A stretch of 32,000 bases of DNA from an uncultured Planctomycetota bacterium (GCA_947085455.1 CAMTWR010000043.1:71569-103568), one strand, 5' to 3'. Positions 8,755 through 32,000 are shown, counted from the stretch's first letter. Notes: generated by a model from the sequence alone, not told the origin. Program-made: numbers and translations.

Positions 8755-8832
8755 CAGCTTCGAATCTCGAAACACGTTTTGGGATTCTCGTGCGGAATCC
8801 ACTTTGCGACTACAGCTCCCTGCTGAGGCATC

Positions 8833-12822: not shown

Positions 12823-12850
12823 CTCGTGCGAGTGGCTCGTGCGAGTGGCT
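12823..12850. repeat. Tandem 13-mer (ctcgtgcgagtgg x2 plus a partial copy)
   Basis: Two perfect adjacent copies at 12823-12835 and 12836-12848, in an ORF-poor gap. Confidence 0.9.
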
Positions 12851-12899
12851 GTTTTTCCTACTGAAGGAGCCAGCAGAAACGATCAAACGTCACATTGTC

Positions 12900-12921
12900 G
12901 CCTGAAGCCTGAAGCCTGAAG
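12900..12921. repeat. Tandem heptamer (cctgaag x3)
   Basis: Three perfect adjacent copies, read directly from the sequence. Confidence 0.9.
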
Positions 12922-14302: not shown

Positions 14303-14788
14303 GATAAAGGCCTGAATTTCAGCATGCTTTATCAAACGCACGCCCGAAGCTCGCAGCTTGAAAATGCGAACGCGGGAACTCACGGAAACGCTGGCGTTTG
14401 ATTCCGTCACTGCAACGTCAATGCATCGCTAACGCTGCGTGAGGCAGGGCGACGCAACTGAGTCTCGCACTTTTCGACGGCAGCGTTCTCAACGGCTTCT
14501 AACCATTGTTCCTTTAACCATGTGAGGAACATCGCTGCAGGCTCGCTTCAAATCCCGGCTCAAATGCTGGACACCACACAGCCACTGCAGGATACTCCCT
14601 CCGCAAACATCGACACTCCGCGACGTGATGTGTCATTGCACAGACAGCAGACGTTAACAGTCTAATTCCTGCGACAGCAATCTGCCAAAACATCGAAAAC
14701 AGATGGGGCAACCGGCAGCTCGCAGAGAACCGGCTATCGCCTGGTCCCATTGATACACTTCATAAATGATGACAACGGACGTAACAGC

Positions 14789-15799: not shown

Positions 15800-15865
15800 A
15801 ACTTCCTGCTGCCAATCGGCCATGCCGAAGCCTGATTTCCGTTCATCATCTTCCCGAAACGCCTC

Positions 15866-16738
15866 ATGCTGTTCCCCTCCGACTTTCTGACGCGACTTGA
15901 ATACCTTGCGATCGTCTCGAAGCGAGTGTTCCGAGGCCAGCTGCTGGCACAGCGGCGAACGATGCAGATGGGTTCTGGTATTGAGTTCTCTGAACACCGC
16001 GAATATACGACCGGCGATGACCTGCGTTACCTCGACTGGAACATCTACGCGCGGCATGGCGATCTGCTGCTGAAGCGTTTTCAGGAAGAACAGGATCTGC
16101 GCGTCTATGTGCTGCTGGATTGCTCCCGCAGCATGGCGTTTGGAAGCCCGGCCAAGTTTGATCTGGCCAGACATCTGGCCGCTGCACTGGCTTACATCGC
16201 GCTCTCAGATCTGGACCGAATAGGAATCATCGCCTACGCCGATGGAGTGATCGCCGAGCTGCCGCTGACGCGCGGCAAGGCTCGTATTTTGCCCCTCATG
16301 AAGTTCCTGACAGATCTTCCCACCAGCGGCGCAGATACAGATCTTAGTAAAGCTGTGCAGGGCCTTGTTCATCGAGGAACTCGGTCAGGGCTGGCCATTG
16401 TGATTAGTGATCTGTTTGATGAACACGGGTTTCAGCGAGGTCTGGATCAGCTTCGTTATCATCGTTTCGACACGCATGTCATCCAGTTACACGATCCCAG
16501 GGAAGCGAATCCTGAACTCCTCGGCGACGCAGAACTTGAGGATATAGAAACCGGCACAGTCCGGAAGGTGACAGTCACGGAACGCAATCTTGCGACCTAC
16601 AAGAAACTGTTTTCTGACCACCAGACTGCTGTGAGAGACTACTGCCACAAGTATGCCATGAGCTGCACTCAGTCACCCACGACCGTTCCGTTCGACGAAC
16701 TGATCCTGCGAATGATGAGACAATCGGGTGCGATCTGA
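15866..16738 (+). CDS. DUF58 (vWA-like) protein, the usual MoxR partner
   Basis: Contains HREYTTGDDLRYLDWN and a DCSRSM MIDAS-like segment. It lies 66 nt downstream of the MoxR gene. Confidence 0.85.
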   Translation: MLFPSDFLTRLEYLAIVSKRVFRGQLLAQRRTMQMGSGIEFSEHREYTTGDDLRYLDWNIYARHGDLLLKRFQEEQDLRVYVLLDCSRSMAFGSPAKFDLARHLAAALAYIALSDLDRIGIIAYADGVIAELPLTRGKARILPLMKFLTDLPTSGADTDLSKAVQGLVHRGTRSGLAIVISDLFDEHGFQRGLDQLRYHRFDTHVIQLHDPREANPELLGDAELEDIETGTVRKVTVTERNLATYKKLFSDHQTAVRDYCHKYAMSCTQSPTTVPFDELILRMMRQSGAI

Positions 16739-16837: not shown

Positions 16838-17554
16838 TCAGGTGCACTCAGCCTGACCATGGGCCTGAGAACGAAGCATCACACAGGAACCCGGCCGGAA
16901 TTCGGAACCAAAGCCAGGCTGGCTTTCTACCCAGATGCGTCCTTCCATCAGCTCAACCAGTCGGGAGCAAATGGCAAGCCCCAGTCCTGCGCCGCCAAAC
17001 TTTCTGGTCGCCGAAGAGTCAATCTGTTCGAACAACTTCAAGATATCCGTGGTCCTATCCTCCGGAATACCGATCCCGGAATCTGCGACGACGATATACA
17101 CCATGACGAGTCCATCTTCCACCGAATCAACAAAGATCTCCACGTGAATAAATCCGGCCTCCGTAAACTTAAAAGCATTGGTCAACAGATTGGTGATAAT
17201 CTGTCGAAGCCTTCCCGCATCGTATGATTGAAGATCAAATGACGCTGATTCTTCATCGCAGACTGTTCGGCAATCAGTCCGCTGCTGCTGCCTTTCGAGA
17301 AACAGGCCGCCCATGTCGGCAACCGTTAGCTCTTCAGACGACAGCCGAGCGACACCCGTTTTCCGGGGATCTCTCCCAGCTTGAATCTCGTGGACTTCAT
17401 CGAGATACTTCGACAGAACGGCGTTGGAATCTGCCCAAACACCAAAGAATCATTGTTTTCCCTTGATCTTTTTGCACCACTGTCCATTCTGGTGTGCGAA
17501 AAGCGGAAATTCGTGATACGGTTTCGCTGGTTTTGTGTCCGATACTGCTCCCAT
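16838..17554 (-). pseudogene. Chimeric relic: integrase N-terminus fused in frame to a histidine-kinase HATPase_c C-terminus, interrupted by TGA
   Basis: My own translation in a single frame reads MGAVSDTKPAKPYHEFPLFAHQNGQWCKKIKGKQ*FFGVWADSNAVLSKYLDEVHEIQAGRDPR...LTVADMGGLFLE, then RLRQIITNLLTNAFKFT...DSGIGIP...GGAGLGLAI (N, G1 and G2 boxes). The TGA is at 17450-17452. There is no HisKA H-box or sensor domain. Confidence 0.6.
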
Positions 17555-17633
17555 GTGTTTCTCGCTTCAGGTGTCGTCTCGATCAGAACCGCTGCCGAAA
17601 AGCGCAAAATAACCAGTTATTTTTAATAATAAA

Positions 17634-17707
17634 GCGCCCGTAGCTCAGTTGGATAGAGCGACCGCCTTCTAAGCGGTAGGTCAGTGGTTCGAATCCACTC
17701 GGGCGCA
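17634..17707 (+). tRNA. tRNA-Arg (anticodon TCT)
   Basis: A 74-nt cloverleaf: acceptor GCGCCCG/CGGGCGC, D-arm GCTC-AGTTGGATA-GAGC, anticodon stem ACCGC/GCGGT with loop CTTCTAA, and T-arm AGTGG-TTCGAAT-CCACT. CCA is not encoded. An AT-rich TAATAAT sits just upstream. Confidence 0.95.
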
Positions 17708-17789
17708 TTAAAGGAGAGTCCCGTTTTTGCCACTTTTGGCTAAAAACTGGCCTCCCTCATTTTTGCCTGACACCAACAGTTGACACCAA

Positions 17790-18870
17790 TCAGCTTTCAT
17801 CGCTCGGCTTCACTGTGGCTTTCTTCATCATTGCCGACAACTTCTCAACCGCTTCTTTCTGAGCATTCTGCAGCAAATGCGAGTAAGTGTTGGCCGTTGT
17901 CGCGATGTCGCGATGTCCGAGCCGCTTTTGGATTACCTTGAGATCCACGCCCGCCGCCAGCATCAAACTAGCCTGCGTGTGTCTCAGATCGTGGAAGACG
18001 AACGTATCCGGGATTCCGGCCGCTTTCCTGATTGGATACCAAACACGCCGATCGAAGTTTGAGCCCCGGAGATATCCACCGCGTTCATTGCCGAACACGA
18101 TTGGAATGTCCTCAGGTTCGAAACCTTCCTCTCTGGCTTTCTTCAGCCTGCTCCTGAGAGCCTTAATTGCTTCAGCATCCAGAGCCACCACACGCAGCCC
18201 TGCCGATGTTTTCGGGTCTTTCACCTTCAATCCGCCGCTGAGTTCTTCCAGAGCGCTACGTACAGCCAGAACGCCCTCGTCTAGATTGACAGCGTTCCAG
18301 TGGAGTGCGAACAATTCGCCCTTCCTGAGACCTGTCATCGCCGCCAGGATGATCAGATCACCGAGCCGGTGAGATTCGCACGCCGCGAACAACTTTGCAC
18401 ACTGTTCTGGCTCCAATGGCGTTACTTCTTCCCGGCCAACCTTTGGCTTGTCCAATGCCGCGCACGGATTGTAGGGCAGCAGCCTAAGTTTCACGGCCTG
18501 ATTGAGTGCAGCCCGCAGAATCTTGATCGTCCGGAACCTGATTTCAGCGCTGATACCCTTCCGAGCCATCTTTGCCTGCCAGGTTACCAGTTGATCGCCA
18601 TCCAACTTAGACAGCTTTAAATGCCTGATGTTTGGCGTGATGTAGAGTTTCACGATGCCGCCATATTCCTGACGGGGCTTTCCAGCTCTGTTGAAGTGCA
18701 ATATGATCATCCAGCCACCGCTGGAGATACCCCGCGACCGTATCCTTGCCCACAACCGACTTGGCGTTCGTATCTCGCTGCTGTCTCAGGTTCTTCAGCT
18801 TCACAACGACTTCGGCCTGAGAGCCAATGATTCGAACGCGAAGTGAGGTGCTGCCGGTTTCAGGGACAGG
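17790..18870 (-). pseudogene. Tyrosine recombinase/integrase, frameshifted and 5'-truncated
   Basis: The catalytic domain is intact in frame B (GLRKGE, HDLRHT, GHRDIATTANTYSH give R..HxxR..H..Y). The N-terminal SAM-like domain (TVAGYLQRWLDDHIAL) is in another frame, with the switch at about 18680-18695. That upstream frame runs back to a stop at 18871-18873 without an ATG, so no full-length start remains (GTG at 18804 is the only candidate start codon). Confidence 0.75.
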
Positions 18871-20097: not shown

Positions 20098-20331
20098 ATG
20101 ACAAAACAGACACATGATTCAGGTTTTTTTCAGCGGGTTCATCGTGGGCATTTCGAGAATTTTTGCAGAAAACTGACGGCAGCAGAGAGCCATGTTCAAC
20201 TGGAGAAAATTATTTCGACTATTGATGTCGCGGTCACTCGAAAAATGATCGACTCCAGCGATCACGAATCGTTGATGGAGTTGATTCAGCGCCGCAGGCA
20301 GGAACTCAACAAAGCAGACCCCGCGAAATAA
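20098..20331 (+). CDS. Small hypothetical helical protein (77 aa)
   Basis: ATG 20098 is directly preceded by GGGAG. The sequence is charged and helical-looking (…HESLMELIQRRRQELNK) and ends in tandem stops taataa. No recognisable motif. Confidence 0.4.
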   Translation: MTKQTHDSGFFQRVHRGHFENFCRKLTAAESHVQLEKIISTIDVAVTRKMIDSSDHESLMELIQRRRQELNKADPAK

Positions 20332-20402
20332 TAATTCAGTGCTTTCTGCGGCGGAGAACAGCACATTGTGACCCAGGCTCTCAGAATGAGCCTTATACTC
20401 CA

Positions 20403-20927
20403 TCATACCCAGTCTTTACGACCGAACGCCAGGTACTGCAGAAGAATTGGAAGCTCATAAACTGCCAACAACACGAACAACGTTCGTCCTTTCTTGTGCG
20501 TTTGATCAAACGCTGACATGTCGTGATGGAGTGAGTAGCGGCGATGGCTCAGCAGTTGCACTCGATGCCACGCTGGAATCATGATCAGATGCAACCAGAA
20601 GGGAATTCCCGGTGTCGCAACAGCCGCCGCGATTAATAACATCGAAGACAGGAATGTGGGCAGAAACACCGGAATCGGAATATTCCGCAGGAGCACTCCA
20701 AAGTAGGGGACGAATAGCATCGTCAGCACACAGCATTGAATCGTGGGCGTTATCTCCGGCAACAAGCTTCTGACGGCGATCGCGGCCAGCGAGCACAGAG
20801 AGAAATAAACGCCATAGACGGCAATGATGTGCCAAACGTTGATTCCAAACTGACCGTGGCGACACAGATGTCTCTGATACAGTTCGTCGAAATTGATACG
20901 CAGGATGTTCACTTTCTTTTTCTCCAT
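20403..20927 (-). CDS. Small integral membrane protein (about 4 TM), possibly DUF962/Mpo1-like
   Basis: Has four hydrophobic segments. The N-terminal YQRHLCRHGQFGINVWHII loosely recalls the Y..H....N...H signature of DUF962. It overlaps the upstream aminotransferase gene by 19 nt, suggesting operon coupling. Confidence 0.5.
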   Translation of the reverse strand: MEKKKVNILRINFDELYQRHLCRHGQFGINVWHIIAVYGVYFSLCSLAAIAVRSLLPEITPTIQCCVLTMLFVPYFGVLLRNIPIPVFLPTFLSSMLLIAAAVATPGIPFWLHLIMIPAWHRVQLLSHRRYSLHHDMSAFDQTHKKGRTLFVLLAVYELPILLQYLAFGRKDWV

Positions 20928-23059
20928 AATGCGGTCAACGCCGTGAACAGCATTCTGGCCGTCGAGGCGCGTAGCGTGTCGGCGATCGTCCTGCTTACAG
21001 CCGTTACTTCATCCTCGGTCACGGTGAGAGGTGGAGTAAACTTCAGAATATGCGGTTCGTACTGACAGAATCCCATCAACACCGGGCAGTTGGTGTGGTT
21101 CATCATCTGCAGCAGGTACAACTGAGCAGCATTCAGGCCCAATCGCTGAATAAGACTGCTCTGGCAATTTAATTCAATCCCAATCAGGAGTCCGTAACAG
21201 CGTATGTCCCTGACCAGAGAAACTCCTTTCAATTGCCGCACCAGCTCGTCGCGAAACTGCTGTCCCGCGACGGTCACCTGTTGCGAAACATCCTCGTGAT
21301 CTGCTCGCCGCAAACTATTCAGCAGGGCGCGATATCCGAGTTCATACGAGTACTTGTTGCGCAGGTCGGAGATCAGTGTTGATTGTCCGGATCTCAATCG
21401 CGACTCGATGCTGTCCGAGTACAGTGTCATCGCGAACGGGAACATCATATCGCTGACCCCTTTACCGATGGTCAGCAGATCCGGTTGGATCGATTTTTGT
21501 AATGACCTGACGAAGGGACCGGTGCGAAACATGCCCGTCTGAATCTCATCCACGAATAAAAATGCACCCGTCCGTTGCCGGATCTCCTCGATGCAATCAA
21601 GCAGAGAATCCGGAATTTCACGGACACCGCCCACGCCCTGAATCAGCTCCAACTGAATGACGGCGATGGGCGTTGTGGAAGCGATCTGTTCCAGTTGCGT
21701 AGCCGCGTCGTCTGCGAACGGATTCAGATAAACGACGTTAGCATACAAGGGATCAATATTTGTTCGGTAGTAGTTCTTTGCGGTGCCGGACAAGGCCAGA
21801 AGTGTCTTGCCACCAAACCCGCCGTGAAACGCCACAATCAATGACCGCGAAGGCTGAGCAGCCAGCGCCAACTTGATTGCATGTTCAGCAGCGGCTGCCC
21901 CACTGACGGCCGGTACGTGATGCGGCAGTCCGGTGAGAGTGGTTAGTCGCTGCTCGACTTCTCCGCGGATATCTTCGACAGCATCCATCTCCTTGATTTC
22001 TTTGGCCCAGTCCGCGGGATTGTGTCCTCGCAGACTGCAGGCTACGCCTCCGACTCCGTCAAACACAAGTTTGTTTCCGACGCGGACATAGTGGCCGGAT
22101 GCGGTCACGTCTTCCTGATCATAGCCTGCGAGCGAGATAACCTTTGCGAGTGATGAACTGAACAGATCTCGAAAAGTGCTGTACAATAGGTCGTGGTCAA
22201 CAAGTAACGGCTTCACTGCCTGCTGAAGTTGCGTGTAGAAAGCTTCAGAATGTTCCTGAAGGCACTTCAGAAAGTGCATTGTGGAGACAGTATTTGGTTG
22301 AAATGTTGTGGAATGAAAATTCGTCATGCCTTTCACAGTCCACTGTGCGGCAATCTCGCGGCGAGCCGTGAAGGCTCCGAAGGGAACCTGGCGTCGGGTG
22401 AATGATTCATCAAACACCACGATGTCGGGAACCAGCCCGCTTTTGGGCAGTGTTGCATTGTGGAGGAACAGATCCTGATCCAGGCAGGCGATCATCAGAC
22501 TGTGATCGCTGCTGCAAAACCGCTGAACGGTCTGGTGGAGTTCTTTTGATCGCAGTGATTCTCTCAAGGCCTGCGGCGACAGCACCAGAATTCCGGCCGA
22601 GACCTTGTCCTGTTCCATCCGGGTTATGAACTCTGCCGTCGACAATGCGATGATCTCAGGAATGAACTGGATGCTGATGGGTTCATAGACTCCATACGCC
22701 CCATCAGGCTCAATCGTCGTCTCCGCAAAATGGCGGAAATGGCTTCCATCGTCGACCATAAAAACCCGGGTCGCAGAACTGCGATGTTCCGTGATAGACG
22801 CATCGTTCTGCGAGCGAACATTCTGAGTGTATCTAGCCAGCTTCAGGGCTCCGCTCAGAGCTTCTTCACCTGAGTTCGCCAGGAAGGAGGAGCGTCGGCT
22901 TTCCTTCTTTGACTCTGGCCAAACGTCCCACACCATTTCTGCCAGTGCGACGCAGGTCTGAGCGACGAAGGGATTCAGATACAGACGCAGCAGATTGGGA
23001 ATCTTCAGGCGAATGATCTGGTCGCATGTCTGAAGCGCTGACAGGCCGTCTGCGTTCAT
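20909..23059 (-). CDS. Tandem class-III aminotransferase: degenerate N-terminal copy plus intact C-terminal copy (716 aa)
   Basis: The C-terminal half has the full motif set: LRGHNP, SGAAAAEHAIKLA, FHGGFGGKT, ELIQGVGGV, VDEIQTGMFRTG and PDLLTIGKGVSD (PLP Lys). The N-terminal half keeps FLANSGEEALSGALKLAR, PDIVVFDESF and HSTTFQPN, but lacks the Lys and the Q-G-x-GG and DE-Q-TG motifs. Confidence 0.75.
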   Translation of the reverse strand: MNADGLSALQTCDQIIRLKIPNLLRLYLNPFVAQTCVALAEMVWDVWPESKKESRRSSFLANSGEEALSGALKLARYTQNVRSQNDASITEHRSSATRVFMVDDGSHFRHFAETTIEPDGAYGVYEPISIQFIPEIIALSTAEFITRMEQDKVSAGILVLSPQALRESLRSKELHQTVQRFCSSDHSLMIACLDQDLFLHNATLPKSGLVPDIVVFDESFTRRQVPFGAFTARREIAAQWTVKGMTNFHSTTFQPNTVSTMHFLKCLQEHSEAFYTQLQQAVKPLLVDHDLLYSTFRDLFSSSLAKVISLAGYDQEDVTASGHYVRVGNKLVFDGVGGVACSLRGHNPADWAKEIKEMDAVEDIRGEVEQRLTTLTGLPHHVPAVSGAAAAEHAIKLALAAQPSRSLIVAFHGGFGGKTLLALSGTAKNYYRTNIDPLYANVVYLNPFADDAATQLEQIASTTPIAVIQLELIQGVGGVREIPDSLLDCIEEIRQRTGAFLFVDEIQTGMFRTGPFVRSLQKSIQPDLLTIGKGVSDMMFPFAMTLYSDSIESRLRSGQSTLISDLRNKYSYELGYRALLNSLRRADHEDVSQQVTVAGQQFRDELVRQLKGVSLVRDIRCYGLLIGIELNCQSSLIQRLGLNAAQLYLLQMMNHTNCPVLMGFCQYEPHILKFTPPLTVTEDEVTAVSRTIADTLRASTARMLFTALTALWRKRK

Positions 23060-23062
23060 TTT

Positions 23063-25270
23063 TTAGAGACTCTGTTTGCCGGGGTTGAAACGGACGTTCG
23101 GAAGGTGCGTACTGATGAATCCAAGGAAGACATCTCGATTGCTCCTCGTCATAAATAAGTCAGCGGAAATGCAGCTTGCCTGCCTGCAAGCGGAGTGCGT
23201 GATGCCATCTTTCAGGATCTGACGCAGTTGAAGTTTTGAGATTGGCAATGATTTGTGCTGTTGCCAGAAGATCAGAAATTCTTCAGGCTGCAGGAATAAC
23301 TCCACGTGAAATGCAAACTTACGCACAAACCAGTGGAACAGAGTCGATGCGACTGGCGTTTCTTCGAGCCGATCCCAGACGCGGCCAATACTGTCCCGAG
23401 GCATCTTCAGTGCACCGGCTGTCGCTGGGGAGTCGACGTAATAGCGCCGAATGTCGATGGCAGAGTTGGCTGCCCGATTTTTCCGAATCTCCACATTTGA
23501 GGCGTCGGGATCTTCGAAGACTTTCAGGATGTCTTCGGCGGACGGATCGTCCACGGTCTCGTGTCTTACGGAGTACACGGACTTCGGTTTTACCAGGAGT
23601 GTCAGTCTCAGCAACAACCGATGTCGACTTGTGTCATACATCGCATCTCGAAAGAGCCTGTCCCCTCGCCGCGCGAAGATAAACTGTTCGGATTCTCCAT
23701 CGTACAGCAGGACATCTTCGATGGTGTCGCCCAGAGTCGACACCTGACTTCCGGAACCATGCACCGGAACAAAGAACAATGTTCCCATACTGATCCACGA
23801 GTAGTTCGGAACAACGTAGAACTCACGATCATGCCGGTTGAGTTCCTGAATGCAGTGTTTCAGAGTCAATCCAGCATCGACTGTAAAATGAGTACGGGAA
23901 CTCGCAATATCATAGTCTGATCGGGAATTCGTTTCTCCGAGCAAACCTGACTCGCGAAGTATGGCCTCAAGGTCCAGCATCGAAGCATCTGACAGTTGCG
24001 TTTTCCCGGGCAGTCCCGTCGTCAGCACGACTGTCTTGTCAGAGAACTTCCATCCAAAATGATTCACACCGTTGTTGTATCCCGCCAACTGGATATCACG
24101 GCAGTTGTGTCGGTTGTAGAGGCTGATCATTTCTCGGACTGTGCGCGGTTTCAAAGTGTGGAAGTCAACCTGCCGTGCTGAGGGCATCAACCGAATCAGC
24201 ATGCGGATTACCACAGCAATGAACCACTGAACTCCAAGACTCCTGCACAGGATCGACAGCAGCGATTCTGCATCGTCGGCATGCTGCTCAGCGGCACGTT
24301 CGGCAAGAACTGACTGCCACGAACGCCGAACTCCAAGAATCGTCAGGTGGCGGATGCTCCGGAATCGGGAGTTCTGTCCGCTATCCGATGCTTCCTCGCA
24401 CGCAGTTGCGTGGGAAGACACAGAACTCTCGACGCGTCCGTTTTTGCTTTGAGAGGACGGTTCGATTTCTGTTGCAGACGAGGCGACGGCCTTAACATTT
24501 GGTGCCCTGCCCCGGAGCGGACTCAGAGATTCCAGCTCGGAGTTGATCGCAGAGAACAGCGTGGTTCCTGGTACGAACGTAGACGATAACTGAGGACCTG
24601 TCAGGGCAAGCAATGGACGCAGACTTTTCAGCCTACTTGTCATTGATGACGAAGGGCTACAGACATAGCCGGTCCGAATGACAACCAGTCGAGACTCCGG
24701 TGCTTTAAGCACGGCCAATGATTCGCCTGTCCCCAAAGAGACAGAATCTGATGTGGGAAGACCGGCTCCCTGAGTGTCAATTGGAGAATTCAAGCGGTCA
24801 CTAACCTGTCGGAACGATTCGCACAATTGATCAAGCAGTTCCTGCATGCCATCGCTTCGTCCGGGACACAAATGAGCATGCAACGAAGGCAGGACAATAA
24901 GGCAATTGAACGAAACCTGTGAATCGAGCTGAGACAAGCCCGAAAACAGACTCAGGACCTGATTCGTTATGCGATGGTCAAGAAAAATAACAATCTCGGC
25001 GGGGCGAAGGTCTTGTCGATGAACTCGCGGAAGAAATGAGTCTGGCGACAGCAACTCTGCTTTGCCCGCCATCGAAGCACGTCCTGGTCCGACATTCAGA
25101 GATTCAAAATAGTCGCGGGCGAGACCTTGATCACCACAGGAAACAATCAGCCGCAAACTAGTGGCAGATCGCTGCCCAGCAGTCTCAGGATCGAACCGTT
25201 CCTGCGGCGTGGCTTCCTGAGAATCAAGCAAACCAAAAGCGGAATTTGTCTCGTCCTCCGACTGTTTCAT
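23063..25270 (-). CDS. 735-aa protein: Ser-rich N-terminal half of unknown function, one hydrophobic segment, and a divergent VAO/ALO-type FAD-oxidase-like C-terminal half
   Basis: The C-terminal half shows a layout recalling PCMH-type FAD oxidases (gulonolactone/arabinonolactone oxidase, DprE1 group): KPRTVREMISLYNRHNCRDIQLAGYNNGVNH, TVDAGLTLKHCIQEL and ISMGTLFFVPVHGSGSQVSTLGDTI, ending in NVRFNPGKQSL. The canonical GHS and HWGK residues are replaced. An ATGA overlap links it to the Psd-like gene. Confidence 0.4.
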   Translation of the reverse strand: MKQSEDETNSAFGLLDSQEATPQERFDPETAGQRSATSLRLIVSCGDQGLARDYFESLNVGPGRASMAGKAELLSPDSFLPRVHRQDLRPAEIVIFLDHRITNQVLSLFSGLSQLDSQVSFNCLIVLPSLHAHLCPGRSDGMQELLDQLCESFRQVSDRLNSPIDTQGAGLPTSDSVSLGTGESLAVLKAPESRLVVIRTGYVCSPSSSMTSRLKSLRPLLALTGPQLSSTFVPGTTLFSAINSELESLSPLRGRAPNVKAVASSATEIEPSSQSKNGRVESSVSSHATACEEASDSGQNSRFRSIRHLTILGVRRSWQSVLAERAAEQHADDAESLLSILCRSLGVQWFIAVVIRMLIRLMPSARQVDFHTLKPRTVREMISLYNRHNCRDIQLAGYNNGVNHFGWKFSDKTVVLTTGLPGKTQLSDASMLDLEAILRESGLLGETNSRSDYDIASSRTHFTVDAGLTLKHCIQELNRHDREFYVVPNYSWISMGTLFFVPVHGSGSQVSTLGDTIEDVLLYDGESEQFIFARRGDRLFRDAMYDTSRHRLLLRLTLLVKPKSVYSVRHETVDDPSAEDILKVFEDPDASNVEIRKNRAANSAIDIRRYYVDSPATAGALKMPRDSIGRVWDRLEETPVASTLFHWFVRKFAFHVELFLQPEEFLIFWQQHKSLPISKLQLRQILKDGITHSACRQASCISADLFMTRSNRDVFLGFISTHLPNVRFNPGKQSL

Positions 25271-26157
25271 AAGCCCGCCTTTCCCGAGTTCGCATCGAAC
25301 AGCGGTTCACCGAAATGAATCGTCTCCTCTCGCTTGACCAGTGGTGAAAGTGTTCGGTCTCGTTCAGTCATCAGGATTACGGTTGACCCCAATTCAAACG
25401 TCGCGATCCACTCGGCGCGATCTACGGGCCGGGGCGTTTCGAGTTTGGTGACCGTTACTCGACGCGGGCTAAAGCGATGACCTGTTGGAAACGGATGTGT
25501 GATGTGACCAACACCCCAGCCTGCCACCATAATCAGCAGACATTTGCCCAGAGATGTATCGAGCTGCATAACGAGCCGCTCGTTCAATGCGAAGACAGGA
25601 AACTCGGGCCTCTGATACGGGGGATGAACAGGCAGGCGATGGCCAGGCACATGAACCAGTTGTTCCAGAACGCCATCGGCTGGCGTAAAGACACGATGAC
25701 AGTCACGTGGCGAGAGAAACAGAATGGCATAGTGCCCATCGTGGAACGGAGTCGTATTAGTCTCGGGGCACAGGGAATCGAGCGTGTAACGAATCCCTTT
25801 GATCGTCATCACCGTGCCACTTTCAATCCGACCGATGTCCTGAACGGTGCCATCAACGGGTGAGAGAAACTGGTCTGTCTGTGTTGGGATTGGCCGAAGT
25901 CCCGGCTTCACACCCCGCGTAAAAAGTTCATTGAGAGACTGAAACTGTTCCAGAGGCTTCTCCAGTTCCGTCTCATCCAGTGCTCCATATTTTCCGCCGT
26001 AGATCATCGAAAACACCTTTCGGCGCAATGCCGCTGTGGGGATGGGTGTTCGAGACAATCGCACTCCGATTGCGGCCCCGAGCATATTGAGAGTTCCACC
26101 ATGGATTCGACGAGCCTGTCGAAATTGTTCCAGTCGTATCTTCATGAAGTGCTTCAT
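25267..26157 (-). CDS. psd: Phosphatidylserine decarboxylase-family pyruvoyl enzyme
   Basis: Contains LNELFTRGVKPGLRPI, LSPVDGTV, RVFTPADG and the self-cleavage site FELGSTVIL (LGST). ATGA overlaps occur at both ends. Confidence 0.8.
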   Translation of the reverse strand: MKHFMKIRLEQFRQARRIHGGTLNMLGAAIGVRLSRTPIPTAALRRKVFSMIYGGKYGALDETELEKPLEQFQSLNELFTRGVKPGLRPIPTQTDQFLSPVDGTVQDIGRIESGTVMTIKGIRYTLDSLCPETNTTPFHDGHYAILFLSPRDCHRVFTPADGVLEQLVHVPGHRLPVHPPYQRPEFPVFALNERLVMQLDTSLGKCLLIMVAGWGVGHITHPFPTGHRFSPRRVTVTKLETPRPVDRAEWIATFELGSTVILMTERDRTLSPLVKREETIHFGEPLFDANSGKAGL

Positions 26158-27716
26158 ACTTCTGACGCCACGATCTCGGCAACGCGCAGAGCATTGGCGA
26201 TGATTGTTAAGGACGGGCCAACTCCCAATGAAGATGGCATGAAACTTCCGTCGACTACAAAAACATCCGGCTGATCAAACAGACGACATTCGGGATCCGC
26301 AACCGCGTAGTCTCGCGACAATCCAAAACGAATCGTGCCGCACTGATGAGCGACATGTTCCTGCGACGGTCTTAGTCCTGAGACGCAATGGACCGCTCCA
26401 GTGCTCTTCAGAAGATCTGCCATACGCCGAGAAAGCTCCGCGCCACGTTCACGATCGTAGTCCGAGAACTGATGATGAAGCTGAATAGTCCCGGACGGGG
26501 CAAGCGAAATGCGATTTTCCGGATTGGGCAGATCTTCAACGATGCCGACCAGAGGCAACATGCGTGAACGCAGAATCTTCAGCATCCAATGAGGAGCCCA
26601 TCGCAGGCCGGATTTTGCCATCATCAGTGGCCCCGGTGCCGGCAAGGACTGAACGATCCCCATTTTCTCAGGCAGATCCCGAGTGCCAAAGTAAAAGTCC
26701 GAAGAGCCGATCTGCTTGATGAAAGTCTCTGTCGCACCGGTGGGACGCCAAAAGAGGCCGATCGAGATCGGCGAATAGTGCATCATGTAATTCCGACCGA
26801 TCATGGGATGTTGAAACCCCGATCTCAGCAGCAGCGCTGCAGATCCCATCGCACCGGCTGACAAGACATAACGTTTTGCGGTGTATCGTTTCCGCGATCC
26901 GGTGGCTCGATCTCTTAGCCAAACACCATTGAGTCGCCCGTTGGTGCCTCGTTCCAGATGGTCGGCTTCCCAGTGAGATTTCAGAGTGAGAGAATCTCCG
27001 CGACCAATGCTTTCACTGACAAGCTGAGCTGATGACCGTCGCGCTCCGGTCGGGCAGGCGAATCCTGCACAGTTATCACACCGCAGGCATTTCGAAGCAT
27101 CAATCGCCAATGGTAAGCGATAAGGGTTGAGACCTGACTTCCATGCTGAACGCAGCAGCATTTCATTAATGCGAGCGAGGGGGATGACGTTTTTATCCGC
27201 CGCCGAGGAATTTGAAGCATGCCCATGCCTGCGCTCGTACGTTGCCGAATCATACGGTACTCCCGGGTTTCGAGGATCTCTTACATCCACAACTCCATAA
27301 AGTCGTTCGGCTGTTTTGAAGTGAGATTCGAAGGATTCGTAAGCCACCGGCCATTCATGTATCTCGCGCGGAATACGACGAGCGTAATATCGACCGGGTG
27401 AAAAGTCCGCCGGATGAGGCCGCAACAACGCGGCTCCGTAAACTGCTGTGCCACCACCGGCAACTCCGCCCATGTAAAGGCGGGACGGCTGCGAGTTCAA
27501 CAGGATGGAGCGATCATCGTACGGCTGCTTGCTGATTAATGTATTGAACTCATTGTGCAGAGATTGCGGATGAGTTGAAGCCACGTTCGTCAAAGTCGGC
27601 AGCATCTCCCCACGTTCAACCAGGAGCACATTCTTCCCGGCCGCCGCGCAGGTCGCAGCCAGGGTTCCGCCTCCAGCGCCACTGCCGATCACGATGATGT
27701 CAAAGTCTGCATCCAT
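26154..27716 (-). CDS. GMC-family FAD-dependent oxidoreductase
   Basis: The N-terminal DIIVIGSGAGGGTLA...LLVERG is a GxGxxG ADP-binding fold. The C-terminal HQCGTIRFG...VVDGSFMPSSLGVGPSLTIIANALRVA is the GMC signature. Confidence 0.85.
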   Translation of the reverse strand: MDADFDIIVIGSGAGGGTLAATCAAAGKNVLLVERGEMLPTLTNVASTHPQSLHNEFNTLISKQPYDDRSILLNSQPSRLYMGGVAGGGTAVYGAALLRPHPADFSPGRYYARRIPREIHEWPVAYESFESHFKTAERLYGVVDVRDPRNPGVPYDSATYERRHGHASNSSAADKNVIPLARINEMLLRSAWKSGLNPYRLPLAIDASKCLRCDNCAGFACPTGARRSSAQLVSESIGRGDSLTLKSHWEADHLERGTNGRLNGVWLRDRATGSRKRYTAKRYVLSAGAMGSAALLLRSGFQHPMIGRNYMMHYSPISIGLFWRPTGATETFIKQIGSSDFYFGTRDLPEKMGIVQSLPAPGPLMMAKSGLRWAPHWMLKILRSRMLPLVGIVEDLPNPENRISLAPSGTIQLHHQFSDYDRERGAELSRRMADLLKSTGAVHCVSGLRPSQEHVAHQCGTIRFGLSRDYAVADPECRLFDQPDVFVVDGSFMPSSLGVGPSLTIIANALRVAEIVASEV

Positions 27717-27736
27717 GGCATGGACTCTGGATGCGA

Positions 27737-27824
27737 ATTAAGAACTTCCCGTTAACAGTTTATGAGTGATTTGCGAACTGCGGGGCTACGCCAGAATTAA
27801 ACAATTTCTGCACGTGTTCTTAAT
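27737..27824. promoter_or_regulatory. Divergent promoter region with a 9-bp inverted repeat (candidate operator)
   Basis: ATTAAGAAC (27737-27745) and GTTCTTAAT (27816-27824) are perfect inverted copies within the 183-bp gap between the two divergent operons. A third GAATTAA half-site lies at 27794. Confidence 0.3.
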
Positions 27825-27899
27825 CCGTCTCATTCAAAACACGGGACTTGCGGCCTTCGTAAACCGACACAGGAACCCTTACACGATCGGCAACCCCTG

Positions 27900-28718
27900 A
27901 TGGAATCAGCGGTCATTCAGCGTCAGTATGACGATGTCATTGCAAGCCAGTACGATCAGGATCCTCAAAACACAACCGGCAAGTCCCTCGAGCGTGCTCT
28001 GGATCATCTCGAATTAGAAGGGCTCTTCTCGCAGATCCTACCGTCGATGCGAGTCCTGGATATTGGAATGGGAACCGGCATGTTTCTGGAGAAGCTGCGA
28101 GCCCGTTCTCAGCGTGCCATCGAACCCTGGGGTCTCGATATCTCAGAGAAGATGGCCAGCATCGCGAGAAAGAAGCTTCCGGATTTGATCTGTGAGATCG
28201 ATGACGGCGCAAACCTAGATAAGCATTTCAATGACGACCAGTTTGATTTGGTGGCAACACATTTTGTGACGGGTTTCGTTCCCATTGAACATATCGCTCC
28301 ACGGATCTTTGCAAAACTGGACGCCGGTGGTGTCTGGTCTTTCGTCGGTGGAACAACAGCCGGTTATCCAGAGTTACAGCGTCGCGCAGGACACCCGTTA
28401 CTCAAGCTGCTGTTCGGCGGCGGTACGACAGAGTTGCAGGGGATGATCTGCCCCAACAACGAACAGGCTGTCGTTAAGGTTCTGCAGCAGAACGGTTTCG
28501 AGATTCTGATGTCGGAGACATATAAGCCGGAGCTTCGGTTTCCGAATTTCGCCTCATTCATTGAATACGGCTATCACGGCGGCTGGCTGACTCCGTTCAT
28601 CGAAGAGATTGGATTGCATAAAGCGAAACGCTGGCAACAAGCGATCCTGAATCGACTTGTCTTTCCCGTCGTTGACCACCACAGCATTGTACTGGCCGTA
28701 GCGCGCCGACCTGCTTAA
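27900..28718 (+). CDS. Class I SAM-dependent methyltransferase
   Basis: Motif I is VLDIGMGTGMF, followed by post-I GLDISEKM and FDLVATHFV. The substrate is unknown. Confidence 0.75.
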   Translation: MESAVIQRQYDDVIASQYDQDPQNTTGKSLERALDHLELEGLFSQILPSMRVLDIGMGTGMFLEKLRARSQRAIEPWGLDISEKMASIARKKLPDLICEIDDGANLDKHFNDDQFDLVATHFVTGFVPIEHIAPRIFAKLDAGGVWSFVGGTTAGYPELQRRAGHPLLKLLFGGGTTELQGMICPNNEQAVVKVLQQNGFEILMSETYKPELRFPNFASFIEYGYHGGWLTPFIEEIGLHKAKRWQQAILNRLVFPVVDHHSIVLAVARRPA

Positions 28719-28741
28719 ATTCTTTCTCTGGGAGTTCCGCA

Positions 28742-30034
28742 ATGCGGATTGCGATCATCGCTGAAGTCTTTCTCCCCAAAATTGATGGCGTTGTTGGACG
28801 GACGGTGAATTTGATCCGTCAGTTGCAGGCAAAAGGCGATGAGGTCATCGTTGTTTGTCCGCGAGTTTCCGAACCTCGAAATTCGCCGGTTCCCCTGATC
28901 GAGTTCCCCAGCTTTCCCTGCGCCAGTTATCCCGAGTATGCCATTGGTCTGCCTGACCAGCGGCTAATTCGAGAGCTGCGGGAGTTCAGGCCCGATGTGG
29001 TCCACTTCCTCAATCCATTCGCGTTCGGGTTTCAGTGCTACGATTTGTTGTGTCGCAGTGACCTGCAATTGCCGGTGTTGTTTTCGTTCCACACGCTCTA
29101 CGGGGAATTCGTGAAGCAGTATCCTGGTCTGGGAATGCTCTCACGAGTGCTCTGGTGGCTGATGAAGAGCTATCACAACACGGCCGATCGAAATCTGACC
29201 GTGTCGGATTTCATGGCAGAAGATCTTCGCAAGCGAGGGTTCGAACGAGTAGCCTTGTGGCCTCCGGCGGTTGACTGCAGTCTTTACAATCCTGAGCGAA
29301 AGTCTGCCGCCATGAGGAGTCGGCTGAGCGGCAATCATCCGGAGTCGCCGTTGCTGTTGACGGTTTCCCGCCTGGCCTCCGAGAAGAACGTCAGCTTTCT
29401 GACGGAGGTGCTCGAACGAGTGCCGGAGGCAACGCTGGCAATCGTTGGTGGAGGTCCTCAACGCGAGGAATTGGTTCGAAGGTTCTCGCCCTACAAAGCT
29501 CACTTCGTAGGATACCTGCGCGGTGAAGAACTGGCTGCGGCTTATGCCTCATCCGATGCATTCGTTTATGCTTCTGAAACTGAAACGATGGGCAATGTCA
29601 TCCTTGAAGCCATGGCCTGCGGATTGCCCGTCATCGCAGCGAATGCGGGTGGTGTTACAAGTCTGGTCCAGCATGGCTCAGACGGATTCCTGTTTACTCC
29701 GCGTAACGCCACGGAAGCCAGCCGCTATGTTCGAGAGATTATTGAATCCGTGAAGCGGCAGGAACAAATGTCTGAGGCTGCTCTGGCGTCCGTTCAAACT
29801 CGGACATGGAGAAACTCCGGCGATGAAGTTCGTGCCCAGTACCAGCAGGTGATCAGCGAGTTTCAGCTTCGGTTACCGAGCCAGATTGAGAATCGTCAGC
29901 CCGGAACAATGGCCACACTTTTGACAAAGACCCTCGTTTACCTGTTTCAGCTTCTTGCACTTGGGAAAATCATTCCAACATTGAACCTGGAAACTTCCCG
30001 CACGCGTCAGCAGCAAGCTCCGGCATTTAAGTAG
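28742..30034 (+). CDS. GT4 glycosyltransferase resembling SqdX/SQD2-type diacylglycerol glycosyltransferases
   Basis: By recollection of SqdX-like sequences, MRIAIIAEVFLPKIDGVVGRT..., MRSRLSGNHPESPLLLTVSRLASEK and FVGYLRGEELAAAYASSDAFVYASETETMGNVILEAMACGLPVIAANAGG (E-x7-E) match. It has a hydrophobic C-terminal helix and GGGAG 8 nt upstream. Confidence 0.6.
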   Translation: MRIAIIAEVFLPKIDGVVGRTVNLIRQLQAKGDEVIVVCPRVSEPRNSPVPLIEFPSFPCASYPEYAIGLPDQRLIRELREFRPDVVHFLNPFAFGFQCYDLLCRSDLQLPVLFSFHTLYGEFVKQYPGLGMLSRVLWWLMKSYHNTADRNLTVSDFMAEDLRKRGFERVALWPPAVDCSLYNPERKSAAMRSRLSGNHPESPLLLTVSRLASEKNVSFLTEVLERVPEATLAIVGGGPQREELVRRFSPYKAHFVGYLRGEELAAAYASSDAFVYASETETMGNVILEAMACGLPVIAANAGGVTSLVQHGSDGFLFTPRNATEASRYVREIIESVKRQEQMSEAALASVQTRTWRNSGDEVRAQYQQVISEFQLRLPSQIENRQPGTMATLLTKTLVYLFQLLALGKIIPTLNLETSRTRQQQAPAFK

Positions 30035-30275
30035 ATACCTGGACGTGGAATTCATCAGAATTGAATTCAAATCGCGCTATAGCATTAACTTTCATATCCG
30101 AGACTTAAGTGAAGTGTCGCGGGATTCGGTATCGCTGGTGTTGAATCTCAGACTTTGTGGTTGGTGGAATCGCGAAAAGCAGCCAGCGAGGCAATTCTCT
30201 CATGACAGAGCGATCCGTGCATGTCGCAGCTAGAGGATCTGGTTTCGAATCTGACGTCAATCCAGGGAGGGCTCT

Positions 30276-30818
30276 ATGAAGACCAGTCGACGGCAAGCGG
30301 CCATCAATCAAATGGTCTATTGGGATCGCCAGATCACGTTTCTGATGAACCGAACTTTGAGATGGCGAACAGTCTCACCGTTCTTTCGAGTTATTAGTAA
30401 TCTTGGCAACGGGAAATTCTGGTATGCGTTGATGGTGATTCTGCCGTTGTTTCACGGTCACTATGGAATCAAAGCCGCCCTGCATATGGGGCTGACTGCA
30501 CTTATCACGCTTCTGGTTTACAAGTCAGTGAAAGGTGTGACTCAGCGACCACGCCCCGGTGCTGTCTACGAGGCGATCATGCAGGGAACTGTAGCTCTGG
30601 ATGAGTACAGTTTTCCGTCGGGGCATACGATGCATGCTGTCGCATTTTCAGTGATCGCCGTTTCCTGGTTCCCGGCATTGCTGCCGCTGCTGCTTAGCTT
30701 TACGGTTCTCATCGCAATCTCCCGCGTTGTGCTGGGGCTCCACTATCCAACGGACGTTGTGCTGGGAGCCTTGTTCGGCATGCTTATTAGTCAACTGAGT
30801 CTGCTGATCGTGGGATAG
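30276..30818 (+). CDS. PAP2-family lipid phosphate phosphatase
   Basis: All three PAP2 motifs are present: KSVKGVTQRPRP (Kx6RP), PSGHT and SRVVLGLHYPTD (SRx5Hx3D). It has multiple TM helices. Confidence 0.85.
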   Translation: MKTSRRQAAINQMVYWDRQITFLMNRTLRWRTVSPFFRVISNLGNGKFWYALMVILPLFHGHYGIKAALHMGLTALITLLVYKSVKGVTQRPRPGAVYEAIMQGTVALDEYSFPSGHTMHAVAFSVIAVSWFPALLPLLLSFTVLIAISRVVLGLHYPTDVVLGALFGMLISQLSLLIVG

Positions 30819-30840
30819 AAGTTATTCGATTCTGCTCGCT

Positions 30841-31752
30841 GTGAGTGACGAATCGAAACAAAACGCAGCTCGTCCGGAGACGATCAACTTGGTCATGTAC
30901 GCCGAACAGTCTCACTTGGACAGGCTCCTGTTTTCTGCTTCCGCTCAGCCGAATACCGTTCCTGACCGCGCGGCGGTCTTCAGGCTTGGATTGCAGTCCA
31001 TGCTTGGCTTATTCCTCGCGCCGCTCGGTCGAAGCGGAGCAAAGTTTCACAGACTACTTTCCTGTTCGAGCCGTCTGGAACATGGGCTGATTATCATTCT
31101 CCCGGGCATCGAAGGTTGCAGTTCTATCAATGACAGTATTGCTCGCGGCCTCGTTGCCGGCCAGTTGTCGCACGCGATTCAAATCATCGACTGGCGACGC
31201 TTTCGTCCGTGGAACCCGCTGCATCTGGCTATGCAGCGACACAATCGTACTCAGGCCCGGGTCGTTGCGGAGTTGATTGTCAGCTACCAGCGCAACTTCC
31301 CGGGCCAGCCGGTTCACTTGATCGGTCACTCCGCCGGTGCAGGGATGGCGTTGTTCGTTCTGGAGCAACTGCGAGAAGATCAGGCTGTGACTTCGGTCAC
31401 ATTATTGTCTGCAGCTGTTTCACGAAAATTTGATGTGGGGCGTCTTCTGAGTCGCACGACGGCTGGCATTTGGAACTTTTATTCTCCGCTGGATTTGCCC
31501 ACTGTCGGGATAGGCACCATGCTCTTCGGGACAATGGACCGTCACCACACCGTATCGGCTGGCGCACTGGGGTTCCTCATCAGGGATCATGATTCAGTGT
31601 CTGCTGGCATTTCACGGGAGCAAGGGCCAAGACTGAATCAGATTCCGTACAAAAAGAGTATGGCCAAATCCTGGAATTTCGGTGGTCATTTCGGATCTAC
31701 AAACGCGGCGTTTGTTCGGGAGCATATTGCTCCCATCTGCCGCCAACGTTGA
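30841..31752 (+). CDS. Alpha/beta-hydrolase (lipase/esterase-like)
   Basis: The nucleophile elbow is HLIGHSAGAG (GxSxG) and there is an N-terminal hydrophobic segment. It may use the GTG start at 30841, with an alternative ATG at 30895. Confidence 0.65.
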   Translation: MSDESKQNAARPETINLVMYAEQSHLDRLLFSASAQPNTVPDRAAVFRLGLQSMLGLFLAPLGRSGAKFHRLLSCSSRLEHGLIIILPGIEGCSSINDSIARGLVAGQLSHAIQIIDWRRFRPWNPLHLAMQRHNRTQARVVAELIVSYQRNFPGQPVHLIGHSAGAGMALFVLEQLREDQAVTSVTLLSAAVSRKFDVGRLLSRTTAGIWNFYSPLDLPTVGIGTMLFGTMDRHHTVSAGALGFLIRDHDSVSAGISREQGPRLNQIPYKKSMAKSWNFGGHFGSTNAAFVREHIAPICRQR

Positions 31753-31859
31753 ACTCTTCACTTCGCAGGGACGTGAGATCATGATGAGTTTCACAGAAGA
31801 TCTTCTTGTCGACGAACCTCTGGATTTTGTCGCTCCGCATCTGCCGGGATTAACAGACA

Positions 31860-32000
31860 ATGAAGTCGGTGGGAGTCCGTGGTCGGGTATTGCTGGTCGA
31901 TGGCTTCACGGTCACTGCGGCCGACACACCCGAGAATCAGACCGAGTATCCGCAGAATCCCGCGCAGAAAGAAGGCATTGGTTTCCCGATTCTGCGCGGC
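31860..32000 (+). mobile_element. IS4-family transposase fragment, 5'-truncated and running off the window
   Basis: MKSVGVRGRVLLVDGFTVTAADTPENQTEYPQNPAQKEGIGFPILRG matches the W-G-x-L-x-x-DG-T-x-x-x-x-PDTPEN...FP segment, which normally sits about 100 aa into IS4-type transposases. An in-frame stop at 31851-31853 lies directly upstream. Confidence 0.55.

Follow-up and report, generated by a model that had tools for sequence, protein, structure and literature searches.

For aquatic and soil bacteria, a major way of adapting to scarce phosphate is to replace phospholipids by lipids free of phosphorus, and the bacterial toolkits known for it are few, namely the PlcP-Agt glycolipids, diacylglyceryl-N,N,N-trimethylhomoserine (DGTS) and the ornithine and glutamine lipids. 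How Planctomycetes adjust their lipids under phosphate stress has hardly been studied. We analysed a gene cluster at positions 20403 to 31752 of a 32,000-nucleotide stretch of DNA from an uncultured Planctomycetota bacterium (GCA_947085455.1 CAMTWR010000043.1:71569-103568; the whole stretch is hereafter called the window). Its right arm resembles, in gene order and protein families, a variant of the known PlcP-Agt lipid-renovation module, and its divergent left arm, an operon of five genes, matches no characterised pathway in the literature searched. The cluster probably builds a nitrogen-containing membrane lipid.

The conversion of a sugar hydroxyl to a cationic amine, by oxidation with or without decarboxylation and then by transamination, is known from ArnA/ArnB (4-amino-arabinose) and from the aminoglycoside 6'-oxidase/transaminase pair. 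The Arn system differs from the left arm in having a NAD-dependent short-chain dehydrogenase/reductase, a DegT-type aminotransferase and no pyruvoyl decarboxylase, and the aminoglycoside oxidase is only a partial and weaker match to the dehydrogenase of the left arm. DGTS, made by BtaA/BtaB, and the trimethyl-ornithine lipid of Singulisphaera, made by OlsH/OlsI/OlsG, are phosphorus-free surrogates of phosphatidylcholine (PC) with a quaternary amine (PMC12971839), and the latter lipid occurs in a planctomycete that also carries the left-arm core described here (PMC12971839, PMC12493201). The cluster holds no Bta or Ols enzyme family, and the flavin oxidation, transamination and decarboxylation that it implies would be an unrelated chemistry; the Singulisphaera ornithine-lipid pathway (OlsH/I/G) was set aside, its enzymes being unrelated to those of the cluster.

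PlcP, a Mn metallophosphoesterase to which LpxH is the outgroup, is encoded in plcP-agt operons, which lead to monoglycosyldiacylglycerol (MGDG) and glucuronic acid diacylglycerol (GADG) under phosphate stress (PMC9239053, PMC8528852). In the known systems, from Sinorhizobium/Ensifer, SAR11, Pseudomonas aeruginosa (PA3219/PA3218) and Methylosinus, phospholipid is converted to diacylglycerol (DAG) and then to MGDG or GADG. What the present cluster shares with them is an LpxH-related metallophosphoesterase and a GT4 glycosyltransferase in one operon and, in the clade of the window, a position among Pho-type phosphatases. It differs by an added methyltransferase, by a PAP2 phosphatase and a hydrolase in one family, and by the constant presence of a divergent five-gene operon that no described PlcP-Agt system has. 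In the window the metallophosphoesterase is truncated, and the likeness rests on gene order and on family scores below cut-off.

Gene order and conservation of the cluster

The nine open reading frames (ORFs) of the block all lie at the coordinates given by the first-pass annotation of this DNA. The features, with the evidence for each in brackets, are the following.

26154-27716, minus strand: GMC-family FAD dehydrogenase (GMC), first gene of the core operon (Pfam GMC_oxred_N/C)
25267-26157, minus strand: Psd-family (pyruvoyl) decarboxylase (Psd), apparently a cluster-specific paralogue (PF02666, TIGR00163)
23063-25270, minus strand: protein X, 735 aa, with a predicted VAO/PCMH-type flavoenzyme C-terminal domain (AF2 model and Foldseek)
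20909-23059, minus strand: fused class-III aminotransferase (AT), 716 aa (Pfam Aminotran_3)
20403-20927, minus strand: small polytopic membrane protein (MEM), 174 aa (alignments, AF2 model)
27717-27899 (183 bp), no strand: divergent intergenic region with a conserved 35-nt block (alignment of orthologous regions)
27900-28718, plus strand: class I S-adenosylmethionine (SAM)-dependent methyltransferase (MT) (Pfam Methyltransf_25/11/23)
28742-30034, plus strand: GT4 glycosyltransferase, candidate Agt-like lipid glycosyltransferase, with a hydrophobic C-terminal tail (Pfam Glycos_transf_1, Glyco_transf_4)
30276-30818, plus strand: PAP2-family membrane phosphatase (PF01569)
30841-31752, plus strand: alpha/beta-fold hydrolase (Abhydrolase_1, GHSAG nucleophile elbow)
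31781-31864, plus strand: 5' stub, 28 codons, of a PlcP/LpxH-like metallophosphoesterase (identity to the protein of related locus L047)
31865-32000, plus strand: start of an IS4/DDE-type transposase (frame 3 translation; DDE_Tnp_1 gene of related locus L046)

The left-arm genes are joined by ATGA overlaps at 26154-26157 (GMC/Psd) and 25267-25270 (Psd/X), by a 3-nt gap between X and AT (TAA-AAA-ATG) and by a 19-nt overlap of AT and MEM. These junctions, as well as the 183-bp divergent gap, were verified by reading the sequence, which bears out the earlier description of five translationally coupled genes. The base composition is even throughout the block. Pfam and NCBIfam agree on the families GMC, PS_Dcarbxylase, Aminotran_3, class I MT, GT4, PAP2 and Abhydrolase, as had been proposed. 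An anti-phage defence function was rejected, the PADLOC defence models giving only a generic methyltransferase-domain match for MT and no match for the other eight proteins.

A scan of species-representative genomes with the alignment of X gave 42 loci, brought by further look-ups to 50 unique loci; the counts per gene refer to the 44 loci with contigs of sufficient length, the other six ending at contig edges. The order GMC-Psd-X-AT-MEM is colinear on one strand in 44/44 loci, and no rearranged case was seen. The carriers are Planctomycetaceae, Pirellulales, Isosphaeraceae, Gemmataceae and Tepidisphaerales, including the cultured Isosphaeraceae Singulisphaera acidiphila, Paludisphaera soli and Aquisphaera insulae, and many of the carrier metagenome-assembled genomes (MAGs) come, according to their record titles, from lakes, glacier-fed streams and soils. 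Protein X has 61 database relatives, exclusively from Planctomycetota.

The methyltransferase adjoins the core in 38 of the 44 loci; of the six loci without it, five stop at a contig end, and the Gemmataceae locus L037 alone truly lacks it. It is divergent from the core in Planctomycetaceae and Pirellulales and lies convergently downstream of it in Isosphaeraceae. Three MT homologues, picked solely for sitting on large contigs, all fell within the same cluster. Considering that the core is colinear in every locus and that these MT homologues lie in the cluster, the two divergent arms are one inherited unit; the scattering of orthologues that the first-pass annotation had asked about was looked for and not seen. 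PAP2 (16/44) and the alpha/beta hydrolase (15/44) are Planctomycetaceae-specific inserts, and both are, together with GT4, lineage-restricted accessories. The whole is therefore a tightly conserved cluster of eight to ten genes that is found in Planctomycetes only. The literature searched yielded no characterised system that combines these genes, in line with the earlier statement that none is known.

Some copies of the cluster deserve separate mention. The MAG MFD01716.bin.2.43 has two divergent copies of core and MT, L027 and L045 (contigs 25658 and 25659), whose X proteins are 35% and 40% identical to that of the window; these are either paralogous clusters or the product of a mixed bin. 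Locus L044 (6719-16053) holds a divergent, possibly decaying copy with identities of 31-35%, in which the Cys motif and the catalytic His region of GMC are scrambled and AT and MEM give only short matches. Typical Planctomycetaceae-type clusters are present in L012 and L013 (both from MAGs labelled Candidatus Kuenenia) and in L017 (labelled Chitinophaga), probably on mis-binned or mislabelled contigs.

Enzyme families of the two arms

GMC gave a full-length match to the catalytic subunit of the Burkholderia cepacia FAD-glucose dehydrogenase (FAD-GDH; 8hdd/6a2u, E = 7.5e-19) and also matches the large subunit of fructose dehydrogenase. It exhibits a C-x2-C-x2-C-x4-C-P motif at residues 210-222, and the Cys motif and the catalytic His are kept in 32/33 orthologues. 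Three of these cysteines align with Cys212, Cys218 and Cys222, the 3Fe-4S ligands of FAD-GDH (PMC6719666), and the fourth is extra. With the B. cepacia enzyme and the Gluconobacter fructose dehydrogenase the protein thus shares the full-length GMC fold, the aligned Fe-S cysteines and the catalytic His. Both of those complexes have hitchhiker and cytochrome c subunits; the GMC of the window has the fourth cysteine (CxxCxxCxxxxCP), a Gly for the usual Asn and no signal peptide; no gene for a hitchhiker (Tat-signal) or multihaem cytochrome c subunit was found in the window or in any related locus. Judged by its sequence, GMC is an Fe-S-type sugar dehydrogenase, presumably cytoplasmic because it lacks a signal peptide. 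The first-pass annotation had likened it to neamine-type oxidases. A match to the aminoglycoside 6'''-hydroxyparomomycin C oxidase (7dve) does exist, over the C-terminal half only (E = 2e-9), but the Fe-S sugar dehydrogenases match better and over the full length, and the analogy is weak.

Psd scored 153 bits on PF02666 (E = 1e-44, cut-off 22) and 138 bits on TIGR00163 (cut-off 111.75), and it aligned with the E. coli Psd 7cnw at E = 2e-25 with the N-terminal region included. The catalytic Asp and His and the LGST self-cleavage site are kept in about 35/37 orthologues. The family score above cut-off, the Asp, the His and the pyruvoyl-forming LGST site are shared with the E. coli enzyme (7cnw/6l06), from which the window copy differs in being divergent and tied into an operon with oxidoreductases and an aminotransferase. 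In locus L002 a separate canonical Psd adjoins the cluster and reaches 364 bits on NF001941, far above the cluster copy on this specific Psd model. The presence of this better-scoring enzyme beside the cluster suggests that the cluster Psd is a specialised paralogue with intact catalytic residues. An exact-sequence look-up of the window Psd returned no record. In the earlier scheme Psd acted on a serine head group, unconnected to the remaining steps. A pyruvoyl decarboxylase requires an alpha-amino acid, which a hexose in glycosidic linkage would not readily give.

The canonical-type Psd of L002 (15069-15962) lies directly downstream of the cluster and has a GT2-DUF2064 gene, PhoD and a PlsY-like acyltransferase in its vicinity.

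Protein X comprises an N-terminal alpha/beta domain with a low-complexity insert, a hydrophobic helix at about residues 336-363 and a predicted VAO/PCMH-type domain at about residues 370-735. Pfam and NCBIfam gave no match on the window protein itself. Its AF2 model has a moderate pLDDT of 72, and the best Foldseek match is L-galactono-1,4-lactone dehydrogenase (GalLDH; 8qnb, E = 2.7e-12), followed by alditol oxidase (AldO), type-II cholesterol oxidase and DprE1, the matches to GalLDH, AldO, DprE1 and cholesterol oxidase falling between E = 1e-12 and 1e-9. At the family level, FAD_binding_4 was detected in 9 of 22 members, the window protein not among them, and a family profile against PDB sequences had GalLDH as its sole match (E = 0.007), in a stretch that spans the FAD-binding domain and includes the HG[ST]G motif. 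The ALO-type C-terminal domain PF04030 gave no match at E <= 1 in the 22 members. The protein therefore has the same predicted fold as GalLDH, GULO/ALO, alditol oxidase and DprE1 and a weak GalLDH profile match, and it differs from the VAO aldonolactone group in the extra N-terminal domain and membrane helix, in the lack of an ALO-domain Pfam match and in an identity of 10-15%. The model points to a membrane-anchored flavoenzyme whose nearest relatives are aldonolactone dehydrogenases. Of the earlier label "FAD-oxidase-like", the VAO fold is upheld by structure prediction, fold search and weak family-level matches, but a Pfam match of its own is missing. An ether-forming role like that of alkyl-DHAP synthase was discarded, that enzyme being absent from the top 50 fold matches.

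The C-terminal half of AT matches Aminotran_3 at residues 366-695 (E = 1e-48, 166 bits), its nearest matches being acetylornithine and putrescine aminotransferases and PigE. The N-terminal half (residues 1 to about 335) taken alone still matches class-III models at E = 5e-9 and retains an NSGxEAxxGAxKLAR signature. The motif of the pyridoxal phosphate (PLP) lysine, GKG[TV]SD, is present in 38/38 C-terminal halves, and the equivalent N-terminal position reads FDES. On these motifs AT is composed of a dead N-terminal class-III-like pseudo-domain and one active omega-type class-III domain, so that the name "tandem class-III aminotransferase" holds for the C-terminal half but not for the degenerate N-terminal half, which is without the PLP lysine. 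As class-III aminotransferases work as dimers, the protein looks like a fused pseudo-dimer with a single active site.

The AF2 model of MEM (pLDDT 93) is polytopic with five to six helices, and the alignments show H20, H24, N30, H33, Q124, H128 and E158 as invariant and D136 as near-invariant. The fold had no match in the PDB, and a profile search of 1.84 billion representatives gave only 107 relatives, none from outside this family. MEM is probably, to judge from these residues, a metal-binding enzyme or an electron-accepting anchor. The Mpo1-like family PF06127 appeared below threshold in 10/23 orthologues (best E = 0.002). An identity as an Mpo1-like/DUF962 2-hydroxy-acid dioxygenase, suggested by the motif, was not adopted because the Pfam support is sub-threshold only and the exhaustive profile search reached no DUF962 protein.

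In the right arm, MT has weak matches to PmtA, to TylM1-type sugar N,N-dimethyltransferases and to the phosphoethanolamine N-methyltransferase PEAMT, and N-methylation by MT would follow from its context. The best NCBIfam matches of GT4 are GlcNAc-PG synthase GpgS (139 bits, cut-off 480) and monoglucosyl-DAG synthase Mgs (93 bits), both below cut-off; its top curated families are lipid glycosyltransferases, and its best PDB match is BshA. GpgS is the GlcNAc-PG synthase of P. aeruginosa (PMC12713373), PG standing for phosphatidylglycerol. The earlier name "SqdX-like" found no support: the 25 best of its 48 NCBIfam matches include no family of SqdX type, and an SqdB-like (UDP-sulfoquinovose synthase) gene was found neither in the window nor in the related loci. 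PAP2 matches PF01569 at E = 3e-23, with weak SepP, PgpB and UppP matches. The hydrolase matches Abhydrolase_1 at E = 7e-6, with weak LIDHydrolase and Hydrolase_4 matches, and its GHSAG was read from the sequence.

A full-length metallophosphoesterase is the last gene of the right-hand operon in 25/44 loci. It is calcineurin-like, and its best NCBIfam match is LpxH, with 51 bits against a cut-off of 134. The adjacency of GT4 and metallophosphoesterase in one operon, which characterises PlcP-Agt, is found in the same number of related loci (25/44), and the window has the stub only. It is because the relatives add this PlcP-like gene after the hydrolase that the right arm resembles a PlcP-Agt module.

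Phosphate genes and a proposed head-group pathway

Among the 150 ORFs flanking the cluster, we counted 4 PhoX, 3 PhoD, 4 purple acid phosphatases, 2 PhoH, 3 HD proteins and 2 OmpR-type regulators. In L047 the order is PhoB-type regulator, metallophosphoesterase, hydrolase, PAP2, GT4, MT, then divergently GMC-Psd-X-AT-MEM, PhoX and purple acid phosphatase, and in two Pirellulales-type loci PhoH and polyphosphate kinase are adjacent. A phosphate-sparing role is plausible: the PlcP-like gene in the relatives and the PhoX, PhoD, purple acid phosphatase and PhoB-type neighbours in the clade of the window speak for it, and their absence in other lineages against it.

Relatives share, at the same position, a conserved non-coding block of 35 nt that lies at 27791-27825 in the window (minus-strand sense GATTAAGAACACGTGCAGAAATTGTTTAATTCTGG). 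A weight matrix made from it picked out this position alone when 0.83 Mb of related sequence was scanned, and did so in more than 15 loci, some of which had not been used for training. The block is a candidate promoter/operator of the core operon. A sigma-70 consensus scan of the divergent gap found nothing and did not pick up the block, which was never seen upstream of the neighbouring phosphatase genes.

Downstream of the cluster in locus L001 (15554-21890) lie genes for a purple acid phosphatase, an HD protein, a DUF5690 transporter-like protein, a DAO flavoenzyme and a HAD hydrolase, a set that resembles aminoethylphosphonate uptake and catabolism genes.

A function in lipid head groups is likely. 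The reading that we prefer, and hold tentatively, is that the cluster remodels membrane-lipid head groups, with a PlcP-Agt-like right arm, an amine-installing left arm and a link to phosphate. The PlcP-like enzyme, of phospholipase C type, and possibly PAP2 too, would release DAG from phospholipids, and GT4 would glycosylate a lipid acceptor to give a glycolipid. The membrane-associated left arm would equip a polyol or sugar head group, bound to lipid, with an amine. In a first step GMC, whose nearest relative is an aldose 1-dehydrogenase, would oxidise a primary alcohol or hemiacetal to an acid or lactone; X, most closely related to enzymes that act on aldonolactones by oxidation at C2, would then convert the neighbouring hydroxyl to a 2-oxo group. 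Transamination by the single active site of AT would yield a lipid-bound alpha-amino acid, from which the Psd paralogue, by pyruvoyl-dependent decarboxylation, would form a primary amine that MT could N-methylate. MEM may, within the membrane, accept the electrons of the Fe-S and flavin centres or carry out an extra metal-dependent step. The net product would be an amine-bearing, possibly quaternary lipid in place of the phospholipids of phosphatidylethanolamine (PE) or PC type at low phosphate. We infer the substrate, the step order, the N-methylation, the role of MEM, the phosphate regulation and the product; the five-step order appears the most economical, as each enzyme would keep the reaction typical of its nearest characterised relative. 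The N-methylated amino-polyol series of archaea and Aquificae, with aminopentanetetrol (APT) head groups, is compatible with this chemistry. As a product of the cluster, APT was kept as a chemical analogy only, because X and MEM are confined to Planctomycetota. The first-pass interpretation is partly supported, namely in the conserved two-arm unit, in the link to lipids and in the sparing of phosphate, and finds little support in the neamine analogy, the SqdX label and the role of Psd.

Several observations weigh against this reading. GT4 is adjacent to the core in 28/44 loci and missing beside nine Isosphaeraceae-type loci, and therefore the conserved core cannot depend on an adjacent GT4. 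The phosphate-stress neighbours, in at least three arrangements, are limited, apart from the two Pirellulales-type loci, to the Planctomycetaceae subclade of the window, and no phosphate-stress genes lie beside the Isosphaeraceae, Gemmataceae and Tepidisphaerales copies. A shared Pho-box-like operator was looked for and not found, the conserved 35-nt block being cluster-specific. GMC and X are only remotely like their nearest enzymes, and at the second catalytic position of GMC the usual Asn is an invariant Gly, so that the His/Asn pair is lacking. The curated-family scores of GT4 and the metallophosphoesterase are far below cut-off. Additionally, the system may be partly disabled in this genome, because the PlcP-like gene has been destroyed by an insertion sequence (IS). 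Finally, a hexose linked to DAG via C1 would offer no route to an alpha-amino acid; the head group would therefore have to be a diol, either of glycerol type or exocyclic, or else a sugar not linked via C1.

A more specific version of the preferred reading, possible though doubtful, is a new lipid class, in which a lipid-attached sugar or glycerol would be converted in place, via an alpha-amino acid, to a (poly)methylated aminomethyl group. This would be a serine-independent, possibly phosphorus-free route to PE- or PC-like lipids, by way of an Fe-S GMC, a membrane-anchored aldonolactone-oxidase-like enzyme, a pseudo-dimeric transaminase and His-rich membrane metalloproteins. If true, it would bring a new head-group chemistry, assign a function to two orphan families, X and MEM, and put the Psd fold to a new use, and it might explain the biosynthetic origin of some unassigned nitrogen-containing polar lipids in environmental lipidomes. 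S. acidiphila carries the core and MT. In strain DSM 18658 the locus, L034, corresponds to NC_019892.1:5129368-5150792 (reversed), and its core spans locus coordinates 7115-14109. The species is cultured, exhibits four unidentified lipid spots and is now open to gene deletion (PMC12493201).

The amino-glycolipid proposed by the first-pass annotation, in which GT4 makes a hexosyl-DAG, GMC and AT turn a CH2OH or ring hydroxyl of the sugar into an amine, MT methylates it, Psd works in parallel on phosphatidylserine (PS) and X and MEM have side roles, seems unlikely. The partial match of GMC to 7dve fits it, as do the omega-type class-III character of AT, a group that normally aminates aldehydes and ketones, the adjacency of GT4 and MT in most lineages and the weak similarity of MT to sugar N,N-dimethyltransferases. 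However, GMC is matched far better, and over its full length, by the Fe-S sugar dehydrogenases, the Isosphaeraceae-type loci keep the core without an adjacent GT4, and at least one genome has a canonical Psd of its own besides the cluster copy. The strictly co-inherited and coupled Psd, X and MEM are, moreover, left without a pathway role.

A serine-independent phospholipid route would lead from PG to phosphatidyl-glycerate and phosphatidyl-hydroxypyruvate (GMC, X), then to PS (AT), to PE (the Psd paralogue) and towards PC (MT). It parallels the phosphorylated serine pathway, but on lipid; we know of no precedent, and the scheme is entirely of our own construction. It uses all five enzymes in order and has the best fit to Psd, offering the natural substrate of a Psd-family enzyme, and MT has weak matches to phospholipid and phosphoethanolamine N-methyltransferases. 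The major phospholipids of S. acidiphila are PC and PG, and PE is not among the major lipids listed (PMC12493201). Because the route saves no phosphorus, it fails to explain the PlcP-like gene and GT4, and it leaves the phosphatase-rich neighbourhood unaccounted for; the nearest relatives of GMC and X use sugars and lactones, not glycerol, and the role of MEM is unexplained. We consider it quite unlikely.

We give little weight to a non-lipid pathway, in which the core would make or degrade an amine or amino-polyol in solution, for example a compatible solute or a head group taken up by scavenging, and the adjacent lipid-type genes would merely be co-regulated. Unusual solutes are known from Planctomycetes, free amino acids can be substrates of Psd-family members, as with the tryptophan decarboxylase PsiD, and the relatives of GMC, X and AT act on soluble substrates. 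However, X has its hydrophobic helix, MEM is polytopic and Psd aligns with the E. coli membrane enzyme including the N-terminal region; the core is also tightly co-inherited with GT4, PlcP-like and PAP2 genes, and there is no transporter gene in the cluster. That the arms are two unrelated neighbouring operons, or a block assembled by the flanking mobile elements, is hardly credible and effectively refuted by synteny: an integrase and an IS element do flank the block and both flanks are replaced relative to L047, but the same divergent pair occurs without mobile elements in dozens of species of several orders, and no repeats bracket it.

Mobile elements and flanking genes

Mobile elements on both sides of the block had been reported, and both were found: a tyrosine recombinase of the phage-integrase family at 17790-18755 and an IS4/DDE transposase fragment from about 31865. 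The DNA homology of the window to the intact relative L047 extends exactly from 20401 to 31867, and therefore both flanks have been replaced in this lineage. On the right, the metallophosphoesterase stub matches residues 1-29 of the L047 protein at 69% identity, and the gene is interrupted by transposase sequence (frame 3 translation ...DTPENQTEYPQNPAQKEGIGFPILRG). The metagenomic relative L046, which is 98% identical, has a DDE_Tnp_1 gene at the same place, and the junction is common to both (95% DNA identity). The left flank (16838-18755) consists of a truncated histidine kinase (HATPase_c only, 157 aa) and the recombinase gene, where the relatives have PhoX and purple-acid-phosphatase genes. 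A search for repeats bracketing the block found none, and a composite transposon was rejected. A Metallophos_2 ORF at 13443-14186, considered as the displaced PlcP-like gene, is unrelated (E = 0.23).

An ORF of 95 aa at 20119-20406 (minus strand) overlaps with its start, by ATGA, the stop codon of MEM. It lies in the lineage-specific replaced flank and has no family match, and a short gene call is present at the same spot in L046. Further upstream in the window, a YTV-repeat protein is encoded at 937-2325, and a separate group of sugar-nucleotide or glycan genes occupies 2940-12135, encoding an Asn-synthase-like protein (546 aa), a GT2 (345 aa), an NTP_transferase (279 aa) and a 1100-aa UDPGP-domain protein. 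A pair formed by a MoxR-type AAA ATPase (AAA_3) gene and a DUF58/VWA gene is located at 14750-16738.

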